A stretch of 64,000 nucleotides of DNA from an uncultured Gemmatimonadaceae bacterium (lineage in GTDB: Bacteria; Gemmatimonadota; Gemmatimonadetes; Gemmatimonadales; Gemmatimonadaceae). Location: contig CAWBOC010000005.1 in the NCBI GenBank assembly GCA_963790305.1, positions 1 to 64,000 on the forward strand, given 5' to 3'. Shown one piece after another: positions 1 to 62,071 of this stretch (positions are counted from its first letter, which is position 1; each line of letters begins with the position of its first letter). A program made the translations under genes and the position numbers. Below the pieces are notes generated by a model. The model saw nothing but the letters and a program-made list of their open reading frames with translations, did no database searches and had not been told where the DNA came from.

Positions 1-12
1 TGCGGTAAAAAA
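1..12. repeat. Right end of a CGCAGAGG-family hairpin element, truncated by the window edge
   Basis: TGCGGTAAAAAA is identical to the 3' end of the element at 455-567 (ctcTGCGGTAAAAAA); only 12 nt are visible. Confidence 0.55.
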
Positions 13-53
13 TGATGAGGCTCACAAGCCACCGCGGAGTCATGCTTCGCGGC

Positions 54-431
54 ATGGGACTCAACGACTCCAGTGGCGCGGTCGTCGATGCAGCTATCAA
101 GGTGCACACGGCCCTTGGGCCAGGGTTGCTCGAAGGCGCTTATGAGGGATGCCTGGCTCATGAGCTCCGAAAGCGCGGGCACCTTGTCGTGCAGCAGCTC
201 GCTCTACCGGTCCTGTATGACGGCGTCTGTATCGACCTGGGGTACAGAATCGATCTCCTGGTTGATGGGGGAGTCGTCGTGGAGGTCAAGTCCGTAGGAA
301 ACCTGGCACCGATTCACAACGCCCAGCTGCTCTCATATCTGAAGCATGGCGGCTACAGGGTTGGGCTGCTGCTCAACTTCAACGTCCCCCACCTCAAGGA
401 CGGCATTCGGCGAATTGTGAATGGCCTGTAG
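54..431 (+). CDS. GxxExxY protein (PD-(D/E)XK-like nuclease fold)
   Basis: GPGLLEGAY signature, RIDLLVD..VVVEVKS, AQLLSYLK, GLLLNF; start could also be at 12/15/42. Confidence 0.93.
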   Translation: MGLNDSSGAVVDAAIKVHTALGPGLLEGAYEGCLAHELRKRGHLVVQQLALPVLYDGVCIDLGYRIDLLVDGGVVVEVKSVGNLAPIHNAQLLSYLKHGGYRVGLLLNFNVPHLKDGIRRIVNGL

Positions 432-454
432 CTCGATCTCGTTTTTTTTGCCGC

Positions 455-567
455 TTTTTACCGCAGAGGACGCGGAGGTACGCGGAGGAACTTCAACTGC
501 GAAGCTTTTCGAAAAGCTTTTGGCAGTTGAATTCCTCTGCGTACCTCTGCGTCCTCTGCGGTAAAAA
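455..567. repeat. Long palindromic REP-like element (CGCAGAGG 9-nt units; inner CAACTGC...GCTTTTCGAAAAGC...GCAGTTG)
   Basis: TTTTTACCGCAGAGGACGCGGAGGTACGCGGAGG ... CCTCTGCGTACCTCTGCGTCCTCTGCGGTAAAAA between convergent genes; may act as a bidirectional terminator. Confidence 0.9.
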
Positions 568-3184: not shown

Positions 3185-3222
3185 GCGCTAGTTATTCAGT
3201 GAAATGCGCAACGAGTCCTATT

Positions 3223-3398
3223 TAACCGCAGATGGCCGCAAAGGGACGGACACTGCTTAGGGACCAAAGTGTCGAGCCCTCGTCCAAATGGCCGCAATAC
3301 TGCCAAAAGACAATGCTGTGGTTTTTTCTGCGGCCATTGGACGAGGGGAAAGGCTATCCGCGAGGAGAACTCTGTCCTGTTGCGGCCATCTGCGGTTA
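3223..3398. repeat. Nested long inverted repeat (CCGCAGATGG-type units)
   Basis: TAACCGCAGATGGCCGCAA (3223-3241) / TTGCGGCCATCTGCGGTTA (3380-3398), with an inner pair CCCTCGTCCAAATGGCCGCA / TGCGGCCATTGGACGAGGG. Confidence 0.85.
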
Positions 3399-3472
3399 CA
3401 TGCCCCTGCGCTCAAGAGCGTCGGAGGCACTCCCCCAATATGGGCATTCGCACTTTGCCCGTCCAGAGCGAT

Positions 3473-5524: not shown

Positions 5525-5634
5525 TTTTTTTACCGCAGAGGACGCAGAGGTACGCAGAGGAACTTCAACTGCAGGAGCTTTTCCAAAAGCACTTGCAGTT
5601 GACGTTCCCTCTGCGTCCTCTGCGTCCTCTGCGG
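5525..5634. repeat. Long palindromic REP-like element (CGCAGAGG family)
   Basis: TTTTTTTACCGCAGAGGACGCAGAGGTACGCAGAGGAACTTCAACTGC..GCTTTTCCAAAAGC..GCAGTTG..CCTCTGCGTCCTCTGCGTCCTCTGCGG; near-copy of 455-567. Confidence 0.9.
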
Positions 5635-5648
5635 CTCAACAAAGGTGC

Positions 5649-7639: not shown

Positions 7640-7753
7640 ATCGATTCTCCTGAGGATTGGTGCGTGCGCGTGTGAGCGTCGCGACCAACCTGCGAAGACA
7701 TCGCTGTCCGGCGCGTCGGCGGGGCTGCCTATTTTGGGGGGTGGGGGTACCTA

Positions 7754-7867
7754 TTTTGAACGCAGAGGACGCGGAGGACGCAGAGGAGGGCAACTGCCAA
7801 GAGCCTTTGCAAGAGCTTCTGCAGTTGAGGTTCCCTCTGCGTCCTCTGCGTCCTCTGCGTTCAAAAA
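7754..7867. repeat. Long palindromic REP-like element (CGCAGAGG family)
   Basis: TTTTGAACGCAGAGGACGCGGAGGACGCAGAGG..CAACTGC..GCAGTTG..CCTCTGCGTCCTCTGCGTCCTCTGCGTTCAAAA. Confidence 0.9.
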
Positions 7868-8014
7868 AAACAGCGAGACGAGCTACGGCCGTGAGCGATT
7901 CACGGCTGGGTGCCGCCGATTCGGCCCGCGAGTAACCGATGACGCCTGTCGCGTCGGAGACGGACATGCTCTCGCATGCCGAGTTGCCGTCACCATCGCC
8001 CAAGGCGCATTCTT

Positions 8015-11952: not shown

Positions 11953-12034
11953 AGGCGCTAAAGGCGCTAAAGGCGCTGGAGGCGCAAACAACCTCCAGCG
12001 CCTCTAGCGCCTCTAGCAGCCCTCTAGCGCCTTT
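11953..12034. repeat. Palindromic element of AGGCGCTAG-type 9-nt units
   Basis: AGGCGCTAAAGGCGCTAAAGGCGCTGGAGG / CCTCCAGCGCCTCTAGCGCCTCTAGC..CTAGCGCCT between convergent genes. Confidence 0.85.
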
Positions 12035-17968: not shown

Positions 17969-18028
17969 GGCGAATCAACTGTGTGGTCCGTTGCATGAGG
18001 CCGACCCCTTGGTCGGCCACTTCCGGTT

Positions 18029-18168
18029 AAGTCGGACAAAATCCGATTCATCTTCACAAGCGGCGCAGGTCGGACAAAATCCGACTCATCTTCAGCAGGC
18101 GGCGCAAGTCGGACAAAATCCGATTCATCTTCAGCAGGCGGCGCAAGTCGGACAAAATCCGATTCATC
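18029..18168. repeat. Tandem array of 38-39-bp units (3.6 copies), each with a TCGGA-CAAAA-TCCGA hairpin
   Basis: Units start at 18029, 18067, 18106 and 18145; consensus AAGTCGGACAAAATCCGATTCATCTTCAGCAGGCGGCGC. Confidence 0.92.
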
Positions 18169-18219
18169 GCGCGGAGCCGCGATGACATACCCTCGACATC
18201 GCTCACCCATGATTCGGTC

Positions 18220-20992: not shown

Positions 20993-23938
20993 ATGCGTCA
21001 CCTTCGACTCGTCTTGCCGAGCCTCGCCGCACTCGCGCTCGCGGCGTCCTGTACCAGCGATACCCTGACTGGGCCGAGCTCCCCCGGCGGGGTTCCGCGC
21101 CTCGATGTGTCCGCCAGCGCTGCCGATCCCGTCGCCTTCTGCAATCCGGCGAGGATAACGATCAATCAGGCCGGCGCCTCCACCCCCTACCCATCGCTCC
21201 TCTCGGTAACAGGCATACCGGCCGGCCCGATCAGGGTGACCGCGACCTTGAATGGAATCTCCCACACGGCGACGGGCGACATCGACATGGTCCTCGTCGG
21301 TCCGGGCGGCCAAAACGTGATGCTGATGTCCGACGCCGGCGGCGGCGCGAACCTTCAGACTGCCACGCTGACGTTCGACGACAACGCCGCGGCTCAGCTT
21401 CCGGCGAGCGGCACCACCGTGATCCCGGGCGGCACGTACAGGCCGACGAATTTCGGGACCGGCGACTTCATTCAAGGCCTGGTAGAGCCCTTCGGCGCCT
21501 CGTTCGCGGTCTTCAACGGCACCGACCCCAATGGGACCTGGAGGCTCCACATCTGGGACGACATCACCTTCGAGGCCGGATCGATCGCCACCGGGTGGTG
21601 CGTCAATATTACGGCTCTGGGCTCGGTACCAGTCGCGAGCGCGGGCGGCCCATACACGGTCGTCGAGGGATCTGCGTTGACCTTCGACGGGACGGGATCG
21701 ACCGATGCCGACAACGACATCGTGTCGTACGCGTGGACCTTCGGGGACGGCGCGACCGGCACCGGCCCGACGCCGGCGCACACGTACGAGGTCATGGGGA
21801 GCTACCCGGTGACGCTCGTGGTGACCGACGCGCAAGGCGCAACCGCCAACGCGGCGACGTCCGTGACCGTGCTCAACGCGCCGGGTACCCCCTTGAGCTT
21901 CTGCAATGCGGCGCCGATCACCATCCGCGACGCTAATTCGGCCCTGCCGTACCCGTCCACGATCGCCGTGTCCGGGGTGAGCGCCGGGTCATTCAAGGTC
22001 ACGGCGACTCTCAAGGGATTCACCACGGCGCTGCTCACGGATCTGGACGCGCTCCTGGTCGGCCCCGGCGGGCAGAAAGTCATGCTGATGTCGGACCTCG
22101 GTGGATCGAGCGACTTCCAGAACGCTACCGTGACGTTCGACGACGCTGGCGCTTTCCAATTCGCCACCGGCACCACCGTCCCGGTCCTCCCGAGCGGCAC
22201 GTACAAGCCGCTGAACATTGGCGGGTCGGATGCCATGCCTGCTCCCGCGCCTCTCGAGCCTTACGGATCCGCGCTCGCTGCTTTTGGAAGCACCAGCCCT
22301 AACGGGACGTGGAGCCTCTTCTTCCGCGACGACCTCCTCCTCGGCGGTGGCAACGGGTTGGTCGCCCGTGGTTGGTGCGTCGACATCGTGGAGCTGGAGA
22401 CGAACTCGCCTCCGGTGGCGAATGCGGGCGGCCCCTACTCGGGCACCGAGGGATCGCCGATCACCTTCGACGGCACCGGATCGACGGATGCGGACAACAA
22501 CATCGCGTCGTACGCGTGGAGCTTTGGGGACGGCGAGACGGGAAGCGGCGCAAGCGTCCAGCACACGTACGCGAACGGCGGTACCTACACGGTGACGCTG
22601 ACGGTGACAGATGCCGACGGAGCAAGCAACGTTGCGACCACGTCGGTGACCGTCGCCGACGTCGCCCCGACCGCGACGTTCAACGCCCCCGCGGATGTCA
22701 ATGAGGGAAGCGTTGCGACGATCTCGCTGACAACGCCATCAGCCGCAAATGCTCGTTATTCCTTCGACTGTGGCAGCGGGTACGGCGCGATCGGCACGGC
22801 GGCGAGCGCCGCGTGTCAGACTGCCGACAACGGATCCGTGACAGTCAAGGGCAGGATCGTCAATGCGGGCAACGACGATCTCTTCACCGAATACACGGCG
22901 GAGATCGACGTCAGGAACGTCGCGCCGACCGCAGTGCTTACGCATAACGGTCCAGTCAGCGAGGGAACCGCGATTCAGCTCCAGCTCGGCAGCTTCGCCG
23001 ACGTCGCAGCCGACCTGGCGGCAGGTCTCACCTTCGCGTTCGACTGCGGCTCGGGGTACGGGGCCATCGGAGGGGCGAGCACCGCATCGTGCCCCACGAG
23101 CGACAATGGCGCTGTGCAGGTCAAGGGGAAGGTCCTCGACAAGGACGGGGGCGAGACGGTGTACAGCGCAATGGTGACCGTGACGAACCTGGCACCAGTG
23201 GTGACCTCGGTCGCCCTTCCCGCTGATCCCGTCGCCGTGAACACGCCTGTCGCGTTAGGCGCCGTCTTCACCGACGCCGGCACCGGAGACTCGCACACGG
23301 GCAGCTTCACGCTCGGCGCAGGTGGACCGGTCGTTTCCGGCGCGGTGGTGGAGACCAACGGCTCCGGCTCGATGAGCGCGAGCGTCACGTTCACGCAGGC
23401 TGGCGTCTACACGATCACCGCGAGCGTGACCGATGACGACGGAGGCACCGGGGTGCGGTCGAGCGCGGTCGAGGTGCCGGCGTTCGTGGTCGTGTACGAC
23501 CCCACCGGCAGCTTCGTCACCGGCGGCGGCTGGATCTCATCGCCGGCAGGCGCATTCGCTACCGAGCCGACCTTCACCGGCAAAGCGAGCTTCGGATTCG
23601 TCGCCAAGTACAAGCCCGGCGCGAGCACGCCGAGCGGCAACACCGAGTTCCAGTTCAAGGCCGGGAACTTGAGCTTCAAGAGCACGGCGTACGAGTGGCT
23701 GGTCGTGGGAGGCGCCCACGCGAGGTTCAAGGGCGAGGGGACCATCAATGGTGGCGGGAGCTACGGGTTCATGGTCACCGCCGTCGACGGCGACCGCCAC
23801 GATGACGTGGATGCATTCCGCATCAAGCTGTGGGACCTCGCCACCGGTGCGATCGTGTACGACAACAAGATCGGCGAAGGCGACGACAGCGCCGCTGCGA
23901 CATCGCTCGGCGGTGGCAGCATCGTGATTCACAAATAG
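20993..23938 (+). CDS. Multidomain surface lipoprotein with proprotein-convertase-P-like and PKD domains
   Basis: AASC lipobox; 2x [DIDMVLVGPGGQ..NGTWRL + AGGPY..YAWTFGDG..VTLVVTD]; 2x FDCGSGY; C-terminal FVTGGGWI..FRIKLWD domain. Confidence 0.88.
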   Translation: MRHLRLVLPSLAALALAASCTSDTLTGPSSPGGVPRLDVSASAADPVAFCNPARITINQAGASTPYPSLLSVTGIPAGPIRVTATLNGISHTATGDIDMVLVGPGGQNVMLMSDAGGGANLQTATLTFDDNAAAQLPASGTTVIPGGTYRPTNFGTGDFIQGLVEPFGASFAVFNGTDPNGTWRLHIWDDITFEAGSIATGWCVNITALGSVPVASAGGPYTVVEGSALTFDGTGSTDADNDIVSYAWTFGDGATGTGPTPAHTYEVMGSYPVTLVVTDAQGATANAATSVTVLNAPGTPLSFCNAAPITIRDANSALPYPSTIAVSGVSAGSFKVTATLKGFTTALLTDLDALLVGPGGQKVMLMSDLGGSSDFQNATVTFDDAGAFQFATGTTVPVLPSGTYKPLNIGGSDAMPAPAPLEPYGSALAAFGSTSPNGTWSLFFRDDLLLGGGNGLVARGWCVDIVELETNSPPVANAGGPYSGTEGSPITFDGTGSTDADNNIASYAWSFGDGETGSGASVQHTYANGGTYTVTLTVTDADGASNVATTSVTVADVAPTATFNAPADVNEGSVATISLTTPSAANARYSFDCGSGYGAIGTAASAACQTADNGSVTVKGRIVNAGNDDLFTEYTAEIDVRNVAPTAVLTHNGPVSEGTAIQLQLGSFADVAADLAAGLTFAFDCGSGYGAIGGASTASCPTSDNGAVQVKGKVLDKDGGETVYSAMVTVTNLAPVVTSVALPADPVAVNTPVALGAVFTDAGTGDSHTGSFTLGAGGPVVSGAVVETNGSGSMSASVTFTQAGVYTITASVTDDDGGTGVRSSAVEVPAFVVVYDPTGSFVTGGGWISSPAGAFATEPTFTGKASFGFVAKYKPGASTPSGNTEFQFKAGNLSFKSTAYEWLVVGGAHARFKGEGTINGGGSYGFMVTAVDGDRHDDVDAFRIKLWDLATGAIVYDNKIGEGDDSAAATSLGGGSIVIHK

Positions 23939-24006
23939 AGGCGCTAGAGGCGCTAGAGGCGCTAGAGGCGCTGAGGGGCAACCCCTTTAGCGCCTCTAGC
24001 GCCTCT
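23936..24006. repeat. Palindromic element of TAGAGGCGC 9-nt units, beginning at the stop codon
   Basis: (TAGAGGCGC)x4 ... TAGCGCCTCTAGCGCCTCT. Confidence 0.88.
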
Positions 24007-24051
24007 GGTGATTATTCTCACGACACCGACGCGCGTTCAAACCTCTGCACA

Positions 24052-26095: not shown

Positions 26096-26321
26096 CCACG
26101 TCATCATGAGTGCGCTCTAAGAACGCACAAGTTCTGGCGGTAAAAAAGACCGGCGCGTGATCACAGAACCGCGTGGTCAACGATCACCCGAAGCTCATTA
26201 CGCCCCTCTCGGCGAGATCGTCTGTTCACCAGGAAGACCTGTCATGACTCGGGTCGTACGACGTGACAACGATCACGCCCGAGCCTCGACGCCAGATCTC
26301 CTCCCCTTTCAAGGACAACTG

Positions 26322-28682
26322 ATGCGCCCCCGCCTGCTGCTCGTGCCCGTGCTCGTCGCGGTTTTTGCCTGCAGTGACCAGACGTTCACGACGTCGCCTA
26401 ACGGCCGACCGAACTTCGACATCGCCGACGCGGTGCGCGACTATAAAGCCGGCTTCTACTGGTTGCCCCCGATGGTCAAGAACCCGACCGTCAGTGGCAC
26501 CTTCGACGCGGCGCTCTCCCCCACCGTCGAGATCTGCGAGCTCGTCGACGGCGCGTGCGGGCCCGTGCTCGCGACCTACACCCTGACGTCGGGTCCAGGC
26601 GGAGAGGTCGTACGCATTCAGGACCAGAAGTATCAAGTGAGCTGGCACACCGATGAGTTCGCGCTGAGCTACGCCAGCGTCTACCGCATCTCCGTCCGCG
26701 CCGGCGTCGACAACACTCTGCTCGGCTACGCCAATGTGCAGTCCGTCGCCAACGGCAGCGCGCTCAAGTACATCGACAGGAACGAGATAATAGGCCTCAT
26801 CGACGGACGCACGCTCCCGATCAAGTTCCGCATCGAGACTGGCGTCGTCGGCGATGTCGACGTCGCGCCGCTCGAGGCGACACTCGAGCCCGGTGGCACG
26901 CAGCAGTTTGTCGCGACCATCAGCGACCTGCATGGCAACCCCGTGACTGGCAGCGTCGTCTGGAGCAGCTCCGATGAGAGCGTCGCGATCGTCGATCAGT
27001 CCGGCCTCGCGACCGCCATCTCGGCGGGCACCGCGATCATCACCGCGACCGCCGAGTTTGTGAGTGGAAGCGCGACGCTGGCCGTCGAGGAACCCTTGAG
27101 GGTCGCCACCATTGAGCTCGCGCCGCTGGAGATGACACTCGAGCCGGGCGGCACGCAGCAGTACACGGCAACCATCCTCGACCAGCATGGCAATCCCATC
27201 GCCGCGGATCTCATCTGGAGCAGCTCCGAGGAGAGCGTCGCGACCGTCGATCAGTCGGGACTCGTGACGGCCGTCTCAGCGGGCACCACAATCATTACGG
27301 CGACCGCAGGGTCTGTGAGTGGAAGCGCAACGCTGACCGTCGAGGCGCCCCCGCCTGTCGTGGGTAGCATCGAGGTCGCGCCGCTCGACGTGACGCTCGA
27401 GCCCGGTGGCACGCAGCAGTACAGGGCGCTCGTCAGCGACGTAAATGGCAATCCCATGACCGCTGATGTCACCTGGAGCAGCTCCGATGAGAGTGTCGCA
27501 ATCGTCGATCAGTCCGGCCTGGTGACCGCGGTTTCGCAGGGCATTGCGATCATCACGGCGAGCATCGAGTCTGTGAGTGGAAGCGCGACGCTGATCGTCG
27601 AGGAACCCGTCGAAGAAGGCGTCGTCCTCGTCAGCGCCGGCGATTCGCACTCCTGCGCCATCGACGAAGACGGTGTCGCATTCTGCTGGGGACTCGGCAG
27701 CTCGGGTCAGCTCGGCAATGGTTTCCTCGTTAATCGATTCACGCCCTTCCCGGTCGCCGGCGGCCACACCTTCACCGCGATCGCGACCGCGGAAACGCAC
27801 TCGTGCGGCATCACGACCACCGGACAGACCTACTGCTGGGGTCTCAACAACGTCGGCCAGCTCGGCGACGGCACGACCATCGCCCAGGCTTCTCCGTCGC
27901 TCGTCGACGGCGGTCTGACCTTCACCTCGATCGTCGCCGGTGCATTCCATACCTGCGCGCTCACCGCCAACGGCGAAGCATACTGCTGGGGCTTCAGCAT
28001 GAGCGGCGCGCTCGGCAACGGCACGACCGCGGTGCGTACGAGCCCCACGGCCGTGTCCGGCGGTCACACGTTCACCTCACTTACCGCCGGTCGTTCGCAT
28101 ACGTGCGGCCTGACGACGGCCGGCGGGACCTACTGCTGGGGTCTCAACTCTTCCGGCCAGGTCGGTGACGGCAGCACTGTCAACAAGTTCATCCCGACCC
28201 AGGTGATGGGCGGATTGACGTTCGCGTCGATCAGCGCCGGTGACGCGCATACCTGCGCGCTCACCTCGACGGGGAGTGCCTACTGCTGGGGCAATGCCGA
28301 CCAGGGCCGCCTTGGTATGGGAGATCCCGGAGCGCTCATCCACACCTCACCGCAGAGCGTCGCGGGTGGTCAGACCTTCACCGCGATCACCGCCGGCGAG
28401 GCACACTCGTGCGGCATCACCACCAGCGGCGAGGCGTACTGCTGGGGCTCGAACGCCGGCGGCCGTCTCGGCATCGGCACGACCGATCCAATGTCGCTCG
28501 TTCCCGCGGCAGTCGCGGGCGGGCTAACGTTCCGGTCGATCGACGTGGGGGATCACAGCTGCGCGGTCACCACGACCAACGCGGTGTATTGCTGGGGTCC
28601 GGGCGGCAGCGGCCGACTGGGCAACGGGTCGACGGTGAACCAGCCGGCGCCGACGCTGGTCGCTGCGTTCCCGGAGAGTTGA
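26322..28682 (+). CDS. Lipoprotein with three Ig-like (Big_2) domains and an RCC1-repeat propeller
   Basis: VFAC lipobox; 3x WSSS[DE]ESVA.VDQSGL.TA; 7x AG..H[ST]C....G..YCWG....G.LG.G. Confidence 0.92.
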   Translation: MRPRLLLVPVLVAVFACSDQTFTTSPNGRPNFDIADAVRDYKAGFYWLPPMVKNPTVSGTFDAALSPTVEICELVDGACGPVLATYTLTSGPGGEVVRIQDQKYQVSWHTDEFALSYASVYRISVRAGVDNTLLGYANVQSVANGSALKYIDRNEIIGLIDGRTLPIKFRIETGVVGDVDVAPLEATLEPGGTQQFVATISDLHGNPVTGSVVWSSSDESVAIVDQSGLATAISAGTAIITATAEFVSGSATLAVEEPLRVATIELAPLEMTLEPGGTQQYTATILDQHGNPIAADLIWSSSEESVATVDQSGLVTAVSAGTTIITATAGSVSGSATLTVEAPPPVVGSIEVAPLDVTLEPGGTQQYRALVSDVNGNPMTADVTWSSSDESVAIVDQSGLVTAVSQGIAIITASIESVSGSATLIVEEPVEEGVVLVSAGDSHSCAIDEDGVAFCWGLGSSGQLGNGFLVNRFTPFPVAGGHTFTAIATAETHSCGITTTGQTYCWGLNNVGQLGDGTTIAQASPSLVDGGLTFTSIVAGAFHTCALTANGEAYCWGFSMSGALGNGTTAVRTSPTAVSGGHTFTSLTAGRSHTCGLTTAGGTYCWGLNSSGQVGDGSTVNKFIPTQVMGGLTFASISAGDAHTCALTSTGSAYCWGNADQGRLGMGDPGALIHTSPQSVAGGQTFTAITAGEAHSCGITTSGEAYCWGSNAGGRLGIGTTDPMSLVPAAVAGGLTFRSIDVGDHSCAVTTTNAVYCWGPGGSGRLGNGSTVNQPAPTLVAAFPES

Positions 28683-28704: not shown

Positions 28705-28803
28705 TGCATTAACCACAGAGGCACAGAGGGCACGGAGAACGGCCACTGCAACAGCTGTTGCAGTGGCCGTTCTCCGTGCCCTCTGTGCCTCTGTGGTAAT
28801 GCA
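28705..28803. repeat. 86-bp perfect palindrome (28712-28797) of the ACCACAGAGG family
   Basis: ACCACAGAGGCACAGAGGGCACGGAGAACGGCCACTGCAACAG followed directly by its exact reverse complement; lies between convergent genes. Confidence 0.95.
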
Positions 28804-40751: not shown

Positions 40752-40797
40752 GAGTCGAGAAGATGGAGGAGTGCGCGCGGCGCTCGCTAGAGAGAAC

Positions 40798-40882
40798 GGG
40801 CGCTGGGAAAGCGCTGAGGGCGCTGGAAAAGCGCTAAGAACCCCAGCGCTTTTCCAGCGCTCCTAGCGCCATTCCAGCGCCC
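40798..40882. repeat. Palindromic element of GCGCTG 9-10-nt units
   Basis: GGGCGCTGGGAAAGCGCTGAGGGCGCTGGAAAAGCGCT / AGCGCTTTTCCAGCGCTCCTAGCGCCATTCCAGCGCCC. Confidence 0.85.
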
Positions 40883-40893
40883 TCACTTTCTCT

Positions 40894-41879: not shown

Positions 41880-41950
41880 TTTTCAACGCGCAGGACGCGG
41901 AGGACGCGGAGGCATTACCCTCTGCGTCCTCTGCGTCCTCTGCGTTCAAA
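41880..41950. repeat. Short-core copy of the CGCAGAGG palindromic element
   Basis: TTTTCAACGCGCAGGACGCGGAGGACGCGGAGG / CCTCTGCGTCCTCTGCGTCCTCTGCGTTCAAA. Confidence 0.85.
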
Positions 41951-51934: not shown

Positions 51935-52078
51935 TGCGCCACGAGCCCGAACTGCATCACCACAGAGGCACAGAGGACACAGAGAGCACCAACAACGAAG
52001 CCTTTTCAAAAGCTCGTGCAATTGGGGTTCTCGGTGCCCTCTGTGCCTCTGTGGTGATGCAGTCCGGCTCGTTGCGCA
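51935..52078. repeat. Long palindromic element of the ACCACAGAGG family with terminal TGCGCMACGAGCC inverted repeats
   Basis: TGCGCCACGAGCC..ACTGCATCACCACAGAGGCACAGAGG..CTTTTCAAAAGC..CCTCTGTGCCTCTGTGGTGATGCAGT..GGCTCGTTGCGCA. Confidence 0.9.
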
Positions 52079-53887: not shown

Positions 53888-53998
53888 TGCGCAACGAGCC
53901 GTTCCAAAAAGCAGTAGCACAGAGACACACAGAGACAGAAACTTTCTCTGTGTGTCTCTGTGCTACCGCTCTTTTCAGCGGGGGCTCCGCTATTGCGC
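53888..53998. repeat. Palindromic element (CACAGAGA units) with TGCGCAACGAGCC end
   Basis: GTAGCACAGAGACACACAGAGA / TCTCTGTGTGTCTCTGTGCTAC stem (53914-53966) inside looser outer arms. Confidence 0.8.
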
Positions 53999-60678: not shown

Positions 60679-61988
60679 TCACGCGCCGCCGGCTCGCGCA
60701 CGCCGCGCCGATCTCGATCGTGCTGCTCGTCATCGCGGCTGCGGTGTTCTGGCTGCATGCGCGCTTCGCGATCGAGGCCGAGAGCGTCGTCCTCAGGATC
60801 GGCGTGACATTCCTGCTCGCCTTCTTGATCCTCCTCGTCGCCAGGTACGTGGTGCTGCTCTGGCTGAGCTACCTGCATCACATCGGAATGCGGGATGCGG
60901 AATGCGGAACCGTCGTCGATGCTCCCGTGTCGATTCTCGTGCCTGCCTTCAATGAAGGACCCGTCATCGAGGCCGCGATCGGGAGTCTGCTCGAGCTGGA
61001 TTGGCCGTCGTTCGAGATCATCGTCATCAATGACGGCTCGACCAATGACACCTACGAGCGCGCCTGCACCCTCGAGGGGATGCACGGCGCCGCGACGGTT
61101 CGCGTCATCCGAAAGGCGAACGCCGGCAAGGCGAGCGCGCTCAACACGGGATTGGCGGCCGCGTCCTCACCATTCGTGCTGTGCATGGACGCGGACTCCC
61201 GATTGTCGCGTGACACACTGCGGCGAGCAATGCGTCACTTCCGGAATCCGCGCATCGGCGCCGTCGCGGGCAACGTGAAGGTCGTCAATCGCGGCACGCT
61301 GTGGACGCGGCTCCAGGCGCTCGAGTACATCCAGGGGCTGAACCTTCCGCGGCGCGCGCAGGGATTTCTGCGCGTCGTCAACATCATTCCCGGCCCGATC
61401 GGTGTCTTCCGGCGTGAAGTCCTCACGCGAGTCGGCGGATACGACACCGACACCTTCGCCGAGGACGCCGACGTCACCATCAAGATCCTCGGCGCCGGTT
61501 GGCAGATCGTCTACGAGGATGGCGCGATCGCGTGGACGGAAGCGCCGGAGACGGTGCACGAGCTGCTCAAGCAGCGCTATCGCTGGACGCGCGGAATCCT
61601 TCAGGCCCTCCGAAAGCGGGGCGACTGGCTGGCACGTCCGCGCGGCGACACGGCGGTGTGGCTTTCGCTCCAGGCGCTCCTGTTCGAGGCGATCGTATGG
61701 CCGGTGGTGAACGTCGTCGGCAATCTGTTGTTCGCGATCGCAGCGCTCTCGCTGGGCGCCGCCTCAATGGTGCTCCACTGGTGGCTTCTGTTGACGATGC
61801 TCGACCTCGCCGCGGCGCTGCACACCGTGGCGATGGAAGAGGAGGACATCACCCTCGTCCCGCTCGCTATTCCCTATCGCTTCTTCTTCATCACGTTGAT
61901 CGACGTGGCGAAGATGTTCGCGACGGTGGAGGAGTTCGCCCGCGTGCGGATGACGTGGGGGAAGCTGGAAAGAGTGGGAAGAATCTGA
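60675..61988 (+). CDS. Processive GT2 glycosyltransferase (PgaC/IcaA-like)
   Basis: VPAFNE, NDGSTND, GKASALN, MDADS, FAED, QRYRW (QxxRW), TWGKLERVG. Confidence 0.92.
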   Translation: MITRRRLAHAAPISIVLLVIAAAVFWLHARFAIEAESVVLRIGVTFLLAFLILLVARYVVLLWLSYLHHIGMRDAECGTVVDAPVSILVPAFNEGPVIEAAIGSLLELDWPSFEIIVINDGSTNDTYERACTLEGMHGAATVRVIRKANAGKASALNTGLAAASSPFVLCMDADSRLSRDTLRRAMRHFRNPRIGAVAGNVKVVNRGTLWTRLQALEYIQGLNLPRRAQGFLRVVNIIPGPIGVFRREVLTRVGGYDTDTFAEDADVTIKILGAGWQIVYEDGAIAWTEAPETVHELLKQRYRWTRGILQALRKRGDWLARPRGDTAVWLSLQALLFEAIVWPVVNVVGNLLFAIAALSLGAASMVLHWWLLLTMLDLAAALHTVAMEEEDITLVPLAIPYRFFFITLIDVAKMFATVEEFARVRMTWGKLERVGRI

Positions 61989-62071
61989 GCGCTAAGGGCG
62001 CTAGAGGCGCTAAGGGCGCTGAACTGCTCTCCCCTTAGCGCCCCTAGCGCCCCTAGCGCCCCTAGCGCCCT
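61988..62071. repeat. Palindromic element of GGCGCTAAG/CTAGCGCCC 9-nt units inside the operon
   Basis: AGCGCTAAGGGCGCTAGAGGCGCTAAGGGCGCT / CCTTAGCGCCCCTAGCGCCCCTAGCGCCCCTAGCGCCCT. Confidence 0.85.

Follow-up and report, generated by a model that had tools for sequence, protein, structure and literature searches.

A GxxExxY nuclease gene and long tandem-unit hairpins look like parts of one undescribed genetic element

The stretch of DNA analyzed here (the window, 64,000 nucleotides (nt) of contig CAWBOC010000005.1 from an uncultured Gemmatimonadaceae bacterium) encodes near its left edge a GxxExxY protein (positions 54–431, + strand), which is followed by a long palindrome. The gene and the hairpins around it seem to belong to a single genetic element, undescribed and probably selfish. 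Their association is general and beyond chance: in a sample of loci from other genomes, an inverted-repeat bracket encloses 57 of 78 GxxExxY genes versus 11 of 885 other open reading frames (ORFs) and none of 690 random 375-bp segments. A reading of the window made from its letters (the sequence-only reading) had proposed that the gene and its repeat family belong together, and this is borne out by the brackets, by dispersed gene-less hairpins with the same arms, and by unit families specific to individual paralogues.

The sample consists of 80 loci encoding relatives 50–72% identical to the window protein, from ~20 phyla and totaling 1.22 Mb. The loci were selected via the GxxExxY gene and comprise gene-bearing DNA only; the window's own genome is not included. 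A plain hairpin scan of these loci gives only ~3-fold enrichment beside the gene, which by itself is attributable to intergenic location. The association emerged once specific units and an arm-gene-arm layout were sought. In the bracket test, the upstream flank was aligned to the reverse complement of the downstream flank, and a bracket was called at a local score of at least 30 within 120 nt per side. The few other ORFs bracketed by this measure are mostly housekeeping genes standing between two elements. On each side of 54 of 77 GxxExxY genes there are at least two tandem C[AG]CNNA[AG] units in the correct polarity, compared with 3 of 776 other ORFs at distances above 600 nt, an enrichment across genomes of the kind that the sequence-only reading had proposed to look for. 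A motif scan further identified 37 gene-less hairpins of the same build in 25 loci; 18 of them fall within ~110 nt of the gene, in flanks that make up ~1.6% of the 1.22 Mb. The same kinds of unit span ~20 phyla, including a Methanosarcinales archaeon, and the hairpins of the plain scan share units with the window in Acidobacteriota, Chloroflexota, Verrucomicrobiota, Proteobacteria, Thermotogota, Spirochaetota, and that archaeon.

The arms have a recurrent architecture. The usual unit is C[AG]CNNAG, often seen as AACC-CGCAGAGG..., and is purine-rich upstream of the gene; its modal period is 9 nt, with a modal number of three units per arm. Arms measure 37 nt at the median, end in (T)AACC / GGTT(A), and stand 11–12 nt from the coding match; in most lineages the gene sits 10–20 nt from each arm. 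In 44 loci the purine-rich arm precedes the gene, and in 8 it follows it. The commonest layout is arm-gene-arm, with the gene in the loop of one hairpin (44 loci), and the reverse order, including a two-hairpin form, accounts for the other 8. A strong direct repeat between the flanks (score of at least 40), which marks a complete hairpin on each side, is found at 17 of the 80 loci. Arms are matched within a locus: the 5′ arm finds its best partner among 51 candidates in its own 3′ arm at 34 of 51 loci.

The gene of the window is very probably flanked in the two-hairpin manner. A complete hairpin (450–572) starts 19 bases past the GxxExxY stop codon and consists of 41-nt arms with 5 mismatches. 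Each arm comprises three tandem ~9-nt units followed by an inner stem; the 5′ arm carries the units ACCGCAGAGG, ACGCGGAGG, and TACGCGGAGG at ~460–488, and the complementary 3′ arm lies at ~534–562. Folded as single-stranded DNA, this region reaches −59.1 kcal/mol (z = −15.2), and none of 200 shuffles is as stable. Upstream, the first 12 bases of the window, TGCGGTAAAAAA, match 557–568 at 12 of 12 positions. This 12-mer is exact at 1–12, 557–568, and 5526–5537 (− strand) and has one mismatch at 454–465 (− strand) and 26136, giving five matches at up to one mismatch versus 0.03 expected, four of which are hairpin ends. Therefore, the window very probably begins inside the right end of a further CGCAGAGG-type hairpin (1–12), truncated by the window edge, a reading also suggested by a parallel in Gemmatirosa described below. 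The ~120-nt palindrome after the stop codon and the identity of the window's first bases with its right end had both been reported by the sequence-only reading and are confirmed. Its placement of the gene between two hairpin copies agrees with TGCGGTAAAAAA at the window start and with the build of the Gemmatirosa homologue; as a general layout it is outnumbered by the arrangement in which the loop of a single hairpin contains the gene (44 loci versus 8).

An independent sample of four plasmid records, matching at E (expect value) up to 1e-10, repeats the pattern. In Bacteroides finegoldii, Bernardetia, and Sphingomonas, an annotated GxxExxY gene again shows the arm-gene-arm order. The cultured Gemmatirosa kalamazoonensis, which belongs to the same family as the window, carries a 63%-identical copy with complete CGCAGAGG hairpins 114 nt upstream and 13 nt downstream. 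We read the entire Gemmatirosa plasmid (NZ_CP007129.1, loci L081–L109; 1,106,233 bp) and found 178 hairpins with stems of at least 18 pairs. By unit, these divide into CGCAGAGG (25), ACTGAAG (20), CACAGAGG (13), GGGACTC (12), ACAGGATG (10), GAGCGTGG (7), GCGTGGCT (6), GGGCAGGA (2), and other hairpins (83). The replicon thus holds at least eight families of tandem-unit hairpins with 7–11-nt units, most of them with no GxxExxY gene adjoining on the replicon. Three GxxExxY paralogues are present on this plasmid, as detected with a profile of our own alignment. Copy 1, which is frameshifted (split near residue 43), stands between CGCAGAGG hairpins, and copy 2 stands between ACTGAAGAAGG hairpins; at copy 3, only the downstream side has a hairpin, of the CGCGGAT family. 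The CGCAGAGG and ACTGAAGAAGG families are also dispersed over the plasmid, in 25 and 20 copies, respectively. Hairpins of the same family stand on both sides of two of the three paralogues and of none of the 746 other ORFs. No striking clustering of solo hairpins near the gene is seen in 232 kb, save the two flanking hairpins and one 8 kb off.

Because the Gemmatirosa copies adjoin different families, as does an intact second copy in locus L021 (35% identical, with CACGGAT arms), paralogue and unit family go together. L021 also holds, at 268–642, a GxxExxY copy with an internal stop codon, which is probably a pseudogene. The same tendency appears on a tree of 79 proteins, 63 of them labeled by arm type as CAC or CGC: the label changes 13 times, versus a mean of 16.7 in within-phylum shuffles (5 of 300 reach 13) and 18.3 in free shuffles (0 of 300 reach 13). 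The covariation of repeat and GxxExxY phylogeny that the sequence-only reading had asked about is thus present, and it shows co-inheritance, not recognition.

Since hairpins fill many gaps of the window, adjacency there could on its own be chance; with 13 hairpins in 64 kb, a small gene might fall between two of them by accident. It is very improbable that the arrangement in the window is such a by-product of hairpin density, or that gene and hairpins are passengers of other, unseen machinery, such as an integron-like or other recombinase. Chance fails across genomes, given the bracket counts of the 80 loci and the two of three paralogues against 0 of 746 ORFs on the Gemmatirosa plasmid. A hairpin-gene-hairpin array does resemble a cassette array, and one arm pair holds other cargo; GxxExxY is nonetheless the sole recurrent cargo seen, occupying 54 of 78 long F-to-R pairs in these loci chosen via the gene, and the other 24 pairs are mostly two-unit chance arms around ordinary genes. 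The attC sites of integrons have the core GTTRRRY. Only one of 40 loci has this core at most 8 nt from its right outer end, and no search for integrase genes was made.

An ORF in the first 567 bases of the window spans 12–431 (+ strand), and its product matches TIGR04256 (GxxExxY; 133.2 bits against a curated cut-off of 35) and PF13366 (PDDEXK_3; 133.8 bits against 22), each at E = 5e-39. Because close relatives among the matches listed are mostly 125 amino acids long and begin at the residue encoded at 54, the ATG at 54 is a likelier start than position 12, yielding a 125-residue protein of the small PD-(D/E)XK nuclease fold. It is the only GxxExxY gene in the window, and its nearest named relative among the matches listed is a Gemmatimonadaceae bacterium protein with 91% identity. 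In an alignment of 91 sequences, with the window protein as first row, G22, G24, L26, E27, D67, K79, G104, and R120 are invariant, and Y30 and E77 are nearly so (at least 90% conserved). The catalytic residues E27, D67, E77, and K79 are accordingly invariant or close to it, and the window protein displays the family traits: the GxxExxY motif, a D...ExK catalytic core, and a length of ~125 residues. An earlier structure model from 16 close sequences was poor (predicted local distance difference test (pLDDT) 53.6); the 91-row alignment remedied this, and the resulting AlphaFold2 model is confident (pLDDT 95). Solved folds most similar to it are those of Cas4 (SSO0001), the archaeal junction resolvase Hjc, and lambda-exonuclease-like enzymes, with template-modeling (TM) scores of 0.45–0.5; the matches include the catalytic domain of the PD-(D/E)XK homing endonuclease I-Bth0305I, and none reaches an E of 0.001. 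By sequence, solved structures contain no relative at E up to 1. The phage records hold no GxxExxY match, and neither do PADLOC and PHROGs. The PF13366/TIGR04256 family is very large, with at least 7,992 significant relatives among 8,000 candidates, and the only paper to classify it gives the function as unknown (PMC3424549). Among the matches listed, contigs carrying the closest relatives are mostly very short, the longest often 0.5–3 kb, which would fit assembly breaks at flanking repeats.

We propose that gene-bearing and gene-less hairpins form one repeat-element family whose nuclease acts on its own unit array, an explanation whose chances we put at about even because every step beyond the association is inference. 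The element would exist in two forms, one with the gene and the other a gene-less hairpin of ~70–120 nt. Its ends would be inverted arms, each usually of three tandem ~9-nt units, with the gene between the arms in most lineages and between two complete hairpins in the Gemmatimonadaceae form, including that of the window. The protein would be an active, metal-dependent endonuclease of the Hjc/Cas4-like PD-(D/E)XK type that recognizes the array of its own units, whether this is present as duplex DNA or folded into a hairpin or cruciform. We infer that its action on the repeats comprises binding, cleavage, and movement: the resulting break would cause the arm-bounded unit to be copied, either to fresh intergenic positions or to other members of the hairpin family. 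On this view, the gene-less hairpins would be non-autonomous and mobilized in trans, in the manner of the REPINs discussed next.

REPINs consist of two inverted repetitive extragenic palindromic sequences (REPs) plus a spacer. They are non-autonomous and depend for replication on REP-associated tyrosine transposases (RAYTs), which are single-copy and mostly inherited vertically (PMC3337134; 10.1101/2022.05.22.493013); a REP is a 20–40-bp imperfect palindrome with a conserved GTAG or CGTC end (PMC3733652). The sequence-only reading had likened the GxxExxY gene and its repeats to such a system (REPtron), with a different nuclease fold and no prior description. Part of the likeness holds. Both have a single nuclease gene between inverted copies of a repeat whose other copies are scattered extragenically as hairpin-forming doublets; moreover, GxxExxY paralogues each have their own repeat family, and the gene persists for long at one site. 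The remainder does not carry over. The GxxExxY enzyme is a 125-residue PD-(D/E)XK protein that matches PF13366 and TIGR04256 only, not an HUH/Y1 (IS200/IS605-like) enzyme; on this the family matches and the fold comparison agree, as foreseen. Its arms are three tandem ~9-nt units rather than a small GTAG- or CGTC-tagged palindrome, its elements reach ~20 phyla and an archaeon, and its gene is usually inside one hairpin. GxxExxY elements would thus appear to work most like the REPIN-RAYT system, yet enzyme and repeat place them outside it. In the literature, no account of a GxxExxY-hairpin association was found; supplements and curators' notes on TIGR04256, which lay outside the search, might mention flanking repeats. 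Literature matches to the repeat-unit strings are unrelated primers or aptamers only.

In annotated records, the element lies between fabD and fabG (Sphingomonas), after radA (Bacteroides finegoldii), and after ade (Bernardetia), and our own reading of ORF translations adds leuD/leuB, trpD/trpC, and oppC/oppD; the elements occupy short spacers of conserved operons. At one orthologous site, locus L019 has a solo CAC-type hairpin (5539–5620) and locus L016 has CGC-type arms around a 1,035-nt loop (1725–2809). The comparison of filled and empty sites suggested by the sequence-only reading turned up nothing of the kind in the closest locus pair (L023 and L065), whose indels hold only unrelated cyanobacterial repeats. 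In a sample that contains no whole chromosome, the three gene copies of the Gemmatirosa plasmid are divergent paralogues, and a tandem duplicate in locus L018 includes host flanks.

Several observations weigh against a nuclease that moves its own repeats. No target-site duplication was found in 40 loci, apart from one 6-mer case: flanks are identical at k = 2 in 4 of the 40 versus 2.5 expected, and at k of at least 3 in one locus. Staggered-cut transposition is therefore disfavored, and old insertions may have lost their duplications. The element stays at the same site throughout Nostocales and throughout Blastocatellia, and two Betaproteobacteria and a Zetaproteobacterium share the same trpD-trpC site, so movement, if any, is rare. 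Its orientation to neighboring genes, which is that of any gene, likewise speaks against easy mobility. The arms of L016 enclose an unrelated 273-residue ORF of no Pfam family, which means that arms can hold other cargo. On the Gemmatirosa plasmid, the CACAGAGG (13), GGGACTC (12), ACAGGATG (10), and other families have no adjoining GxxExxY gene, and the copy adjoining the CGCAGAGG family, which has 25 members, carries a frameshift. No bracket reaches the threshold at 21 of 78 sampled loci, about a quarter; the three most distant relatives (34–38% identity) have weak or no inverted brackets (scores 18–22), and two of these, from Fusobacteria and Prevotella plasmid records (L089 and L091), have by our reading of the flanks direct repeats of ~50 nt, not inverted arms. 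Finally, sampling via the gene leaves hairpin-bearing genomes that lack it outside the sample.

Some of these points would be expected if the hairpins were independent intergenic palindromes, kept by the host or self-spreading, and GxxExxY were a free-standing parasite resembling a homing endonuclease. Such an enzyme would cut empty hairpins near the apex, and repair would copy the gene into the loop using the ~30-bp arms as homology, without multiplying the gene-less hairpins. Repair-based homing predicts the missing target-site duplication, and it fits a gene in the loop at 10–20 nt from each arm, which leaves no space for other functions. It also fits the excess of solo hairpins over genes (13:1 in the window, 178:3 on the Gemmatirosa plasmid), the several hairpin families with no adjoining gene, and the form of the solo hairpins, which are near-perfect palindromes with their own inner stem, not relics of gene deletion. 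The PD-(D/E)XK domain of I-Bth0305I among the fold matches points the same way. Nevertheless, we regard this account, the main alternative, as unlikely: it leaves near-identical hairpin units in ~20 phyla and the two-hairpin layout unexplained, and long retention of an intact gene at one site, as seen here, is unusual for homing genes. Known PD-(D/E)XK homing endonucleases, of which I-Ssp6803I is a further example, are free-standing or intron-borne and share with GxxExxY a small nuclease as the sole protein of a selfish unit and the lack of site duplication. GxxExxY differs in having no intron or intein and in its presumed target, a repeated hairpin rather than a unique gene site.

Insertion sequences and miniature inverted-repeat transposable elements resemble GxxExxY elements in their terminal inverted repeats around a single gene, their short gene-less derivatives with the same ends, and their intergenic location. 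GxxExxY elements differ from them in having no target-site duplication in the 40 loci and no known transposase family, in arms built of tandem units, and in solo copies that are near-perfect palindromes with an inner stem, not internally deleted copies.

In layout, the closest match is the ORF-bearing intervening sequence (IVS) of 23S rRNA. The Coxiella IVS is bounded by terminal inverted repeats that pair into a 28-bp stem; an ORF lies in its loop and three tandem heptamers near its 5′ end, RNase III excises it, and it is termed a selfish genetic element (PMC4990558). A stem of ~28 bp formed by terminal inverted repeats around a small ORF (S23p / 23S_rRNA_IVP in Leptospira and Coxiella) is comparable to GxxExxY arms with their median of 37 nt. 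The elements differ in place, since GxxExxY elements lie between protein-coding genes and not in helix 25 or 45 of 23S rRNA, with no rRNA match in the sources searched. They also differ in the ORF, which encodes a nuclease rather than the four-helix bundle of IVP; in showing no sign of RNA-level selection on the arms; and in their gene-less copies, which number hundreds per replicon. Many other 23S rRNA IVSs are short stem-loops without an ORF. On a Flavobacterium chromosome, outside any rRNA, L067:8300–8830 carries a 23S_rRNA_IVP gene (four-helix bundle, PF05635, E = 8.5e-27) between inverted arms of tandem AGTGTTCAGT-like units, which is the build of a GxxExxY element with a different unit and ORF family. 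This case hints that IVS and GxxExxY elements may be kin.

The IVS also suggests an explanation at the RNA level, in which pairing of the arms in the transcript would form a stem for RNase III to cut and the host operon would thereby be spared, the nuclease having an unrelated role, such as in defense or repair. The layout shared with the Coxiella IVS (stem, ORF in the loop, tandem heptamers, and RNase III excision; PMC4990558) favors this, as do the bracketed IVP gene of L067, the insertion in short spacers between operon genes, and a GGAG/AGAGG in the 5′ arm directly before the start codon. The arms themselves tell against it. Among 2,109 pairs, sense-strand mismatches comprise 68 G·T, 78 A·C, and 122 others, so that G·U shows no preference over A·C; with no G·T excess, nothing suggests that transcript pairing is what is conserved, and the data point to arm likeness maintained at the DNA rather than the RNA level. 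Orientation to the neighbors is at background (67% versus 66% co-directional), PADLOC and PHROGs give no match, and a separate unit family for each paralogue is left unexplained. We consider a role in RNA processing quite improbable.

A nuclease acting on its own unit array can be extended to a broader, more tentative claim, which we regard as possible and somewhat doubtful: GxxExxY may be the sole protein of an unrecognized class of elements, mobile or self-maintaining, that is very widespread among Bacteria and Archaea and in which each paralogue reads three 7–11-nt units, cuts, and multiplies itself and the matching gene-less hairpins. Such a class would be a PD-(D/E)XK counterpart of RAYT-REPIN, with a specificity changeable unit by unit, and it and the ORF-bearing 23S rRNA IVSs might have a common origin. 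The tie to a sequence-defined hairpin repeat gives PF13366/TIGR04256 a concrete, testable substrate, and it would also account for a class of long palindromes that occupy many gaps between genes in Gemmatimonadota, Acidobacteriota, Cyanobacteriota, and others and that may break metagenome assemblies. If the nuclease indeed drives the repeats, the REPIN-RAYT lifestyle would have been invented a second time, independently and on another enzyme fold; should each paralogue read its own unit, the family would offer a natural collection of small modules for DNA recognition. The rRNA IVS parallel hints at a wider class of small ORFs borne on stem-loops.

The hairpins of the window illustrate the gene-less form. 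Thirteen have stems of at least 18 pairs, versus 0–2 in eight dinucleotide shuffles, and all 13 are intergenic. Their units are of the CGCAGAGG, CACAGAGG, and GCGCTNRGG types, plus one odd hairpin. The three solo relatives of the gene-flanking hairpin noted by the sequence-only reading are recovered as CGCAGAGG-type copies at 5525–5640 and 7752–7868, each with three units per arm, and at 41880–41950, with a short loop. Two hairpins are of the CACAGAGG type, one at 28710–28799 with 43-nt arms that are 100% complementary and the other an inverted repeat at 51947–52067. Further inverted repeats have CACAGAGAC units (53899–53981), GCGCTG(A/G)G.. units (40789–40891), and GCGCTAAGG / GCGCTAGAG units (61987–62070), and a hairpin of GCGCTAGAG units at 23932–24015 was identified from the repeat scan and the sequence. 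The hairpin at 11954–12020 is of the same build with a related unit, GCGCTAAAGG; the CGCTAAG and CGCTGAG units, related to it, are found in arms around GxxExxY genes elsewhere. At 3220–3401, an element with a long loop has TTAACCGCAGATGGCCGCAAAGG arms and, nested within them, a further inverted repeat; it lies upstream of a gene whose domains identify it as a STAND/LuxR regulator. An Rfam scan of the hairpins returned no family at the gathering score; matches at E up to 1 are plant and animal microRNA-precursor models only, below threshold, as expected for any long hairpin. The hairpins are not called as intrinsic terminators: they have no T tails, and T runs precede and A runs follow them.

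Three further features were observed. An acidobacterial locus carries an Acido-Lenti-1 RNA (RF01687; L012:3828–3873, − strand; 45.7 bits, gathering score 37) 1.3 kb from its GxxExxY element. In the window, the intergenic region 18019–18173 contains four tandem 39-nt units (..GTCGGACAAAATCCGA..), each with a small palindrome and unrelated to the hairpin families. The ORF at 26121–28682 contains three 252-nt repeats and five ~150-nt repeats within 26844–28485, each ending in ..TACTGCTGGGG, and looks like a repeat-domain protein.

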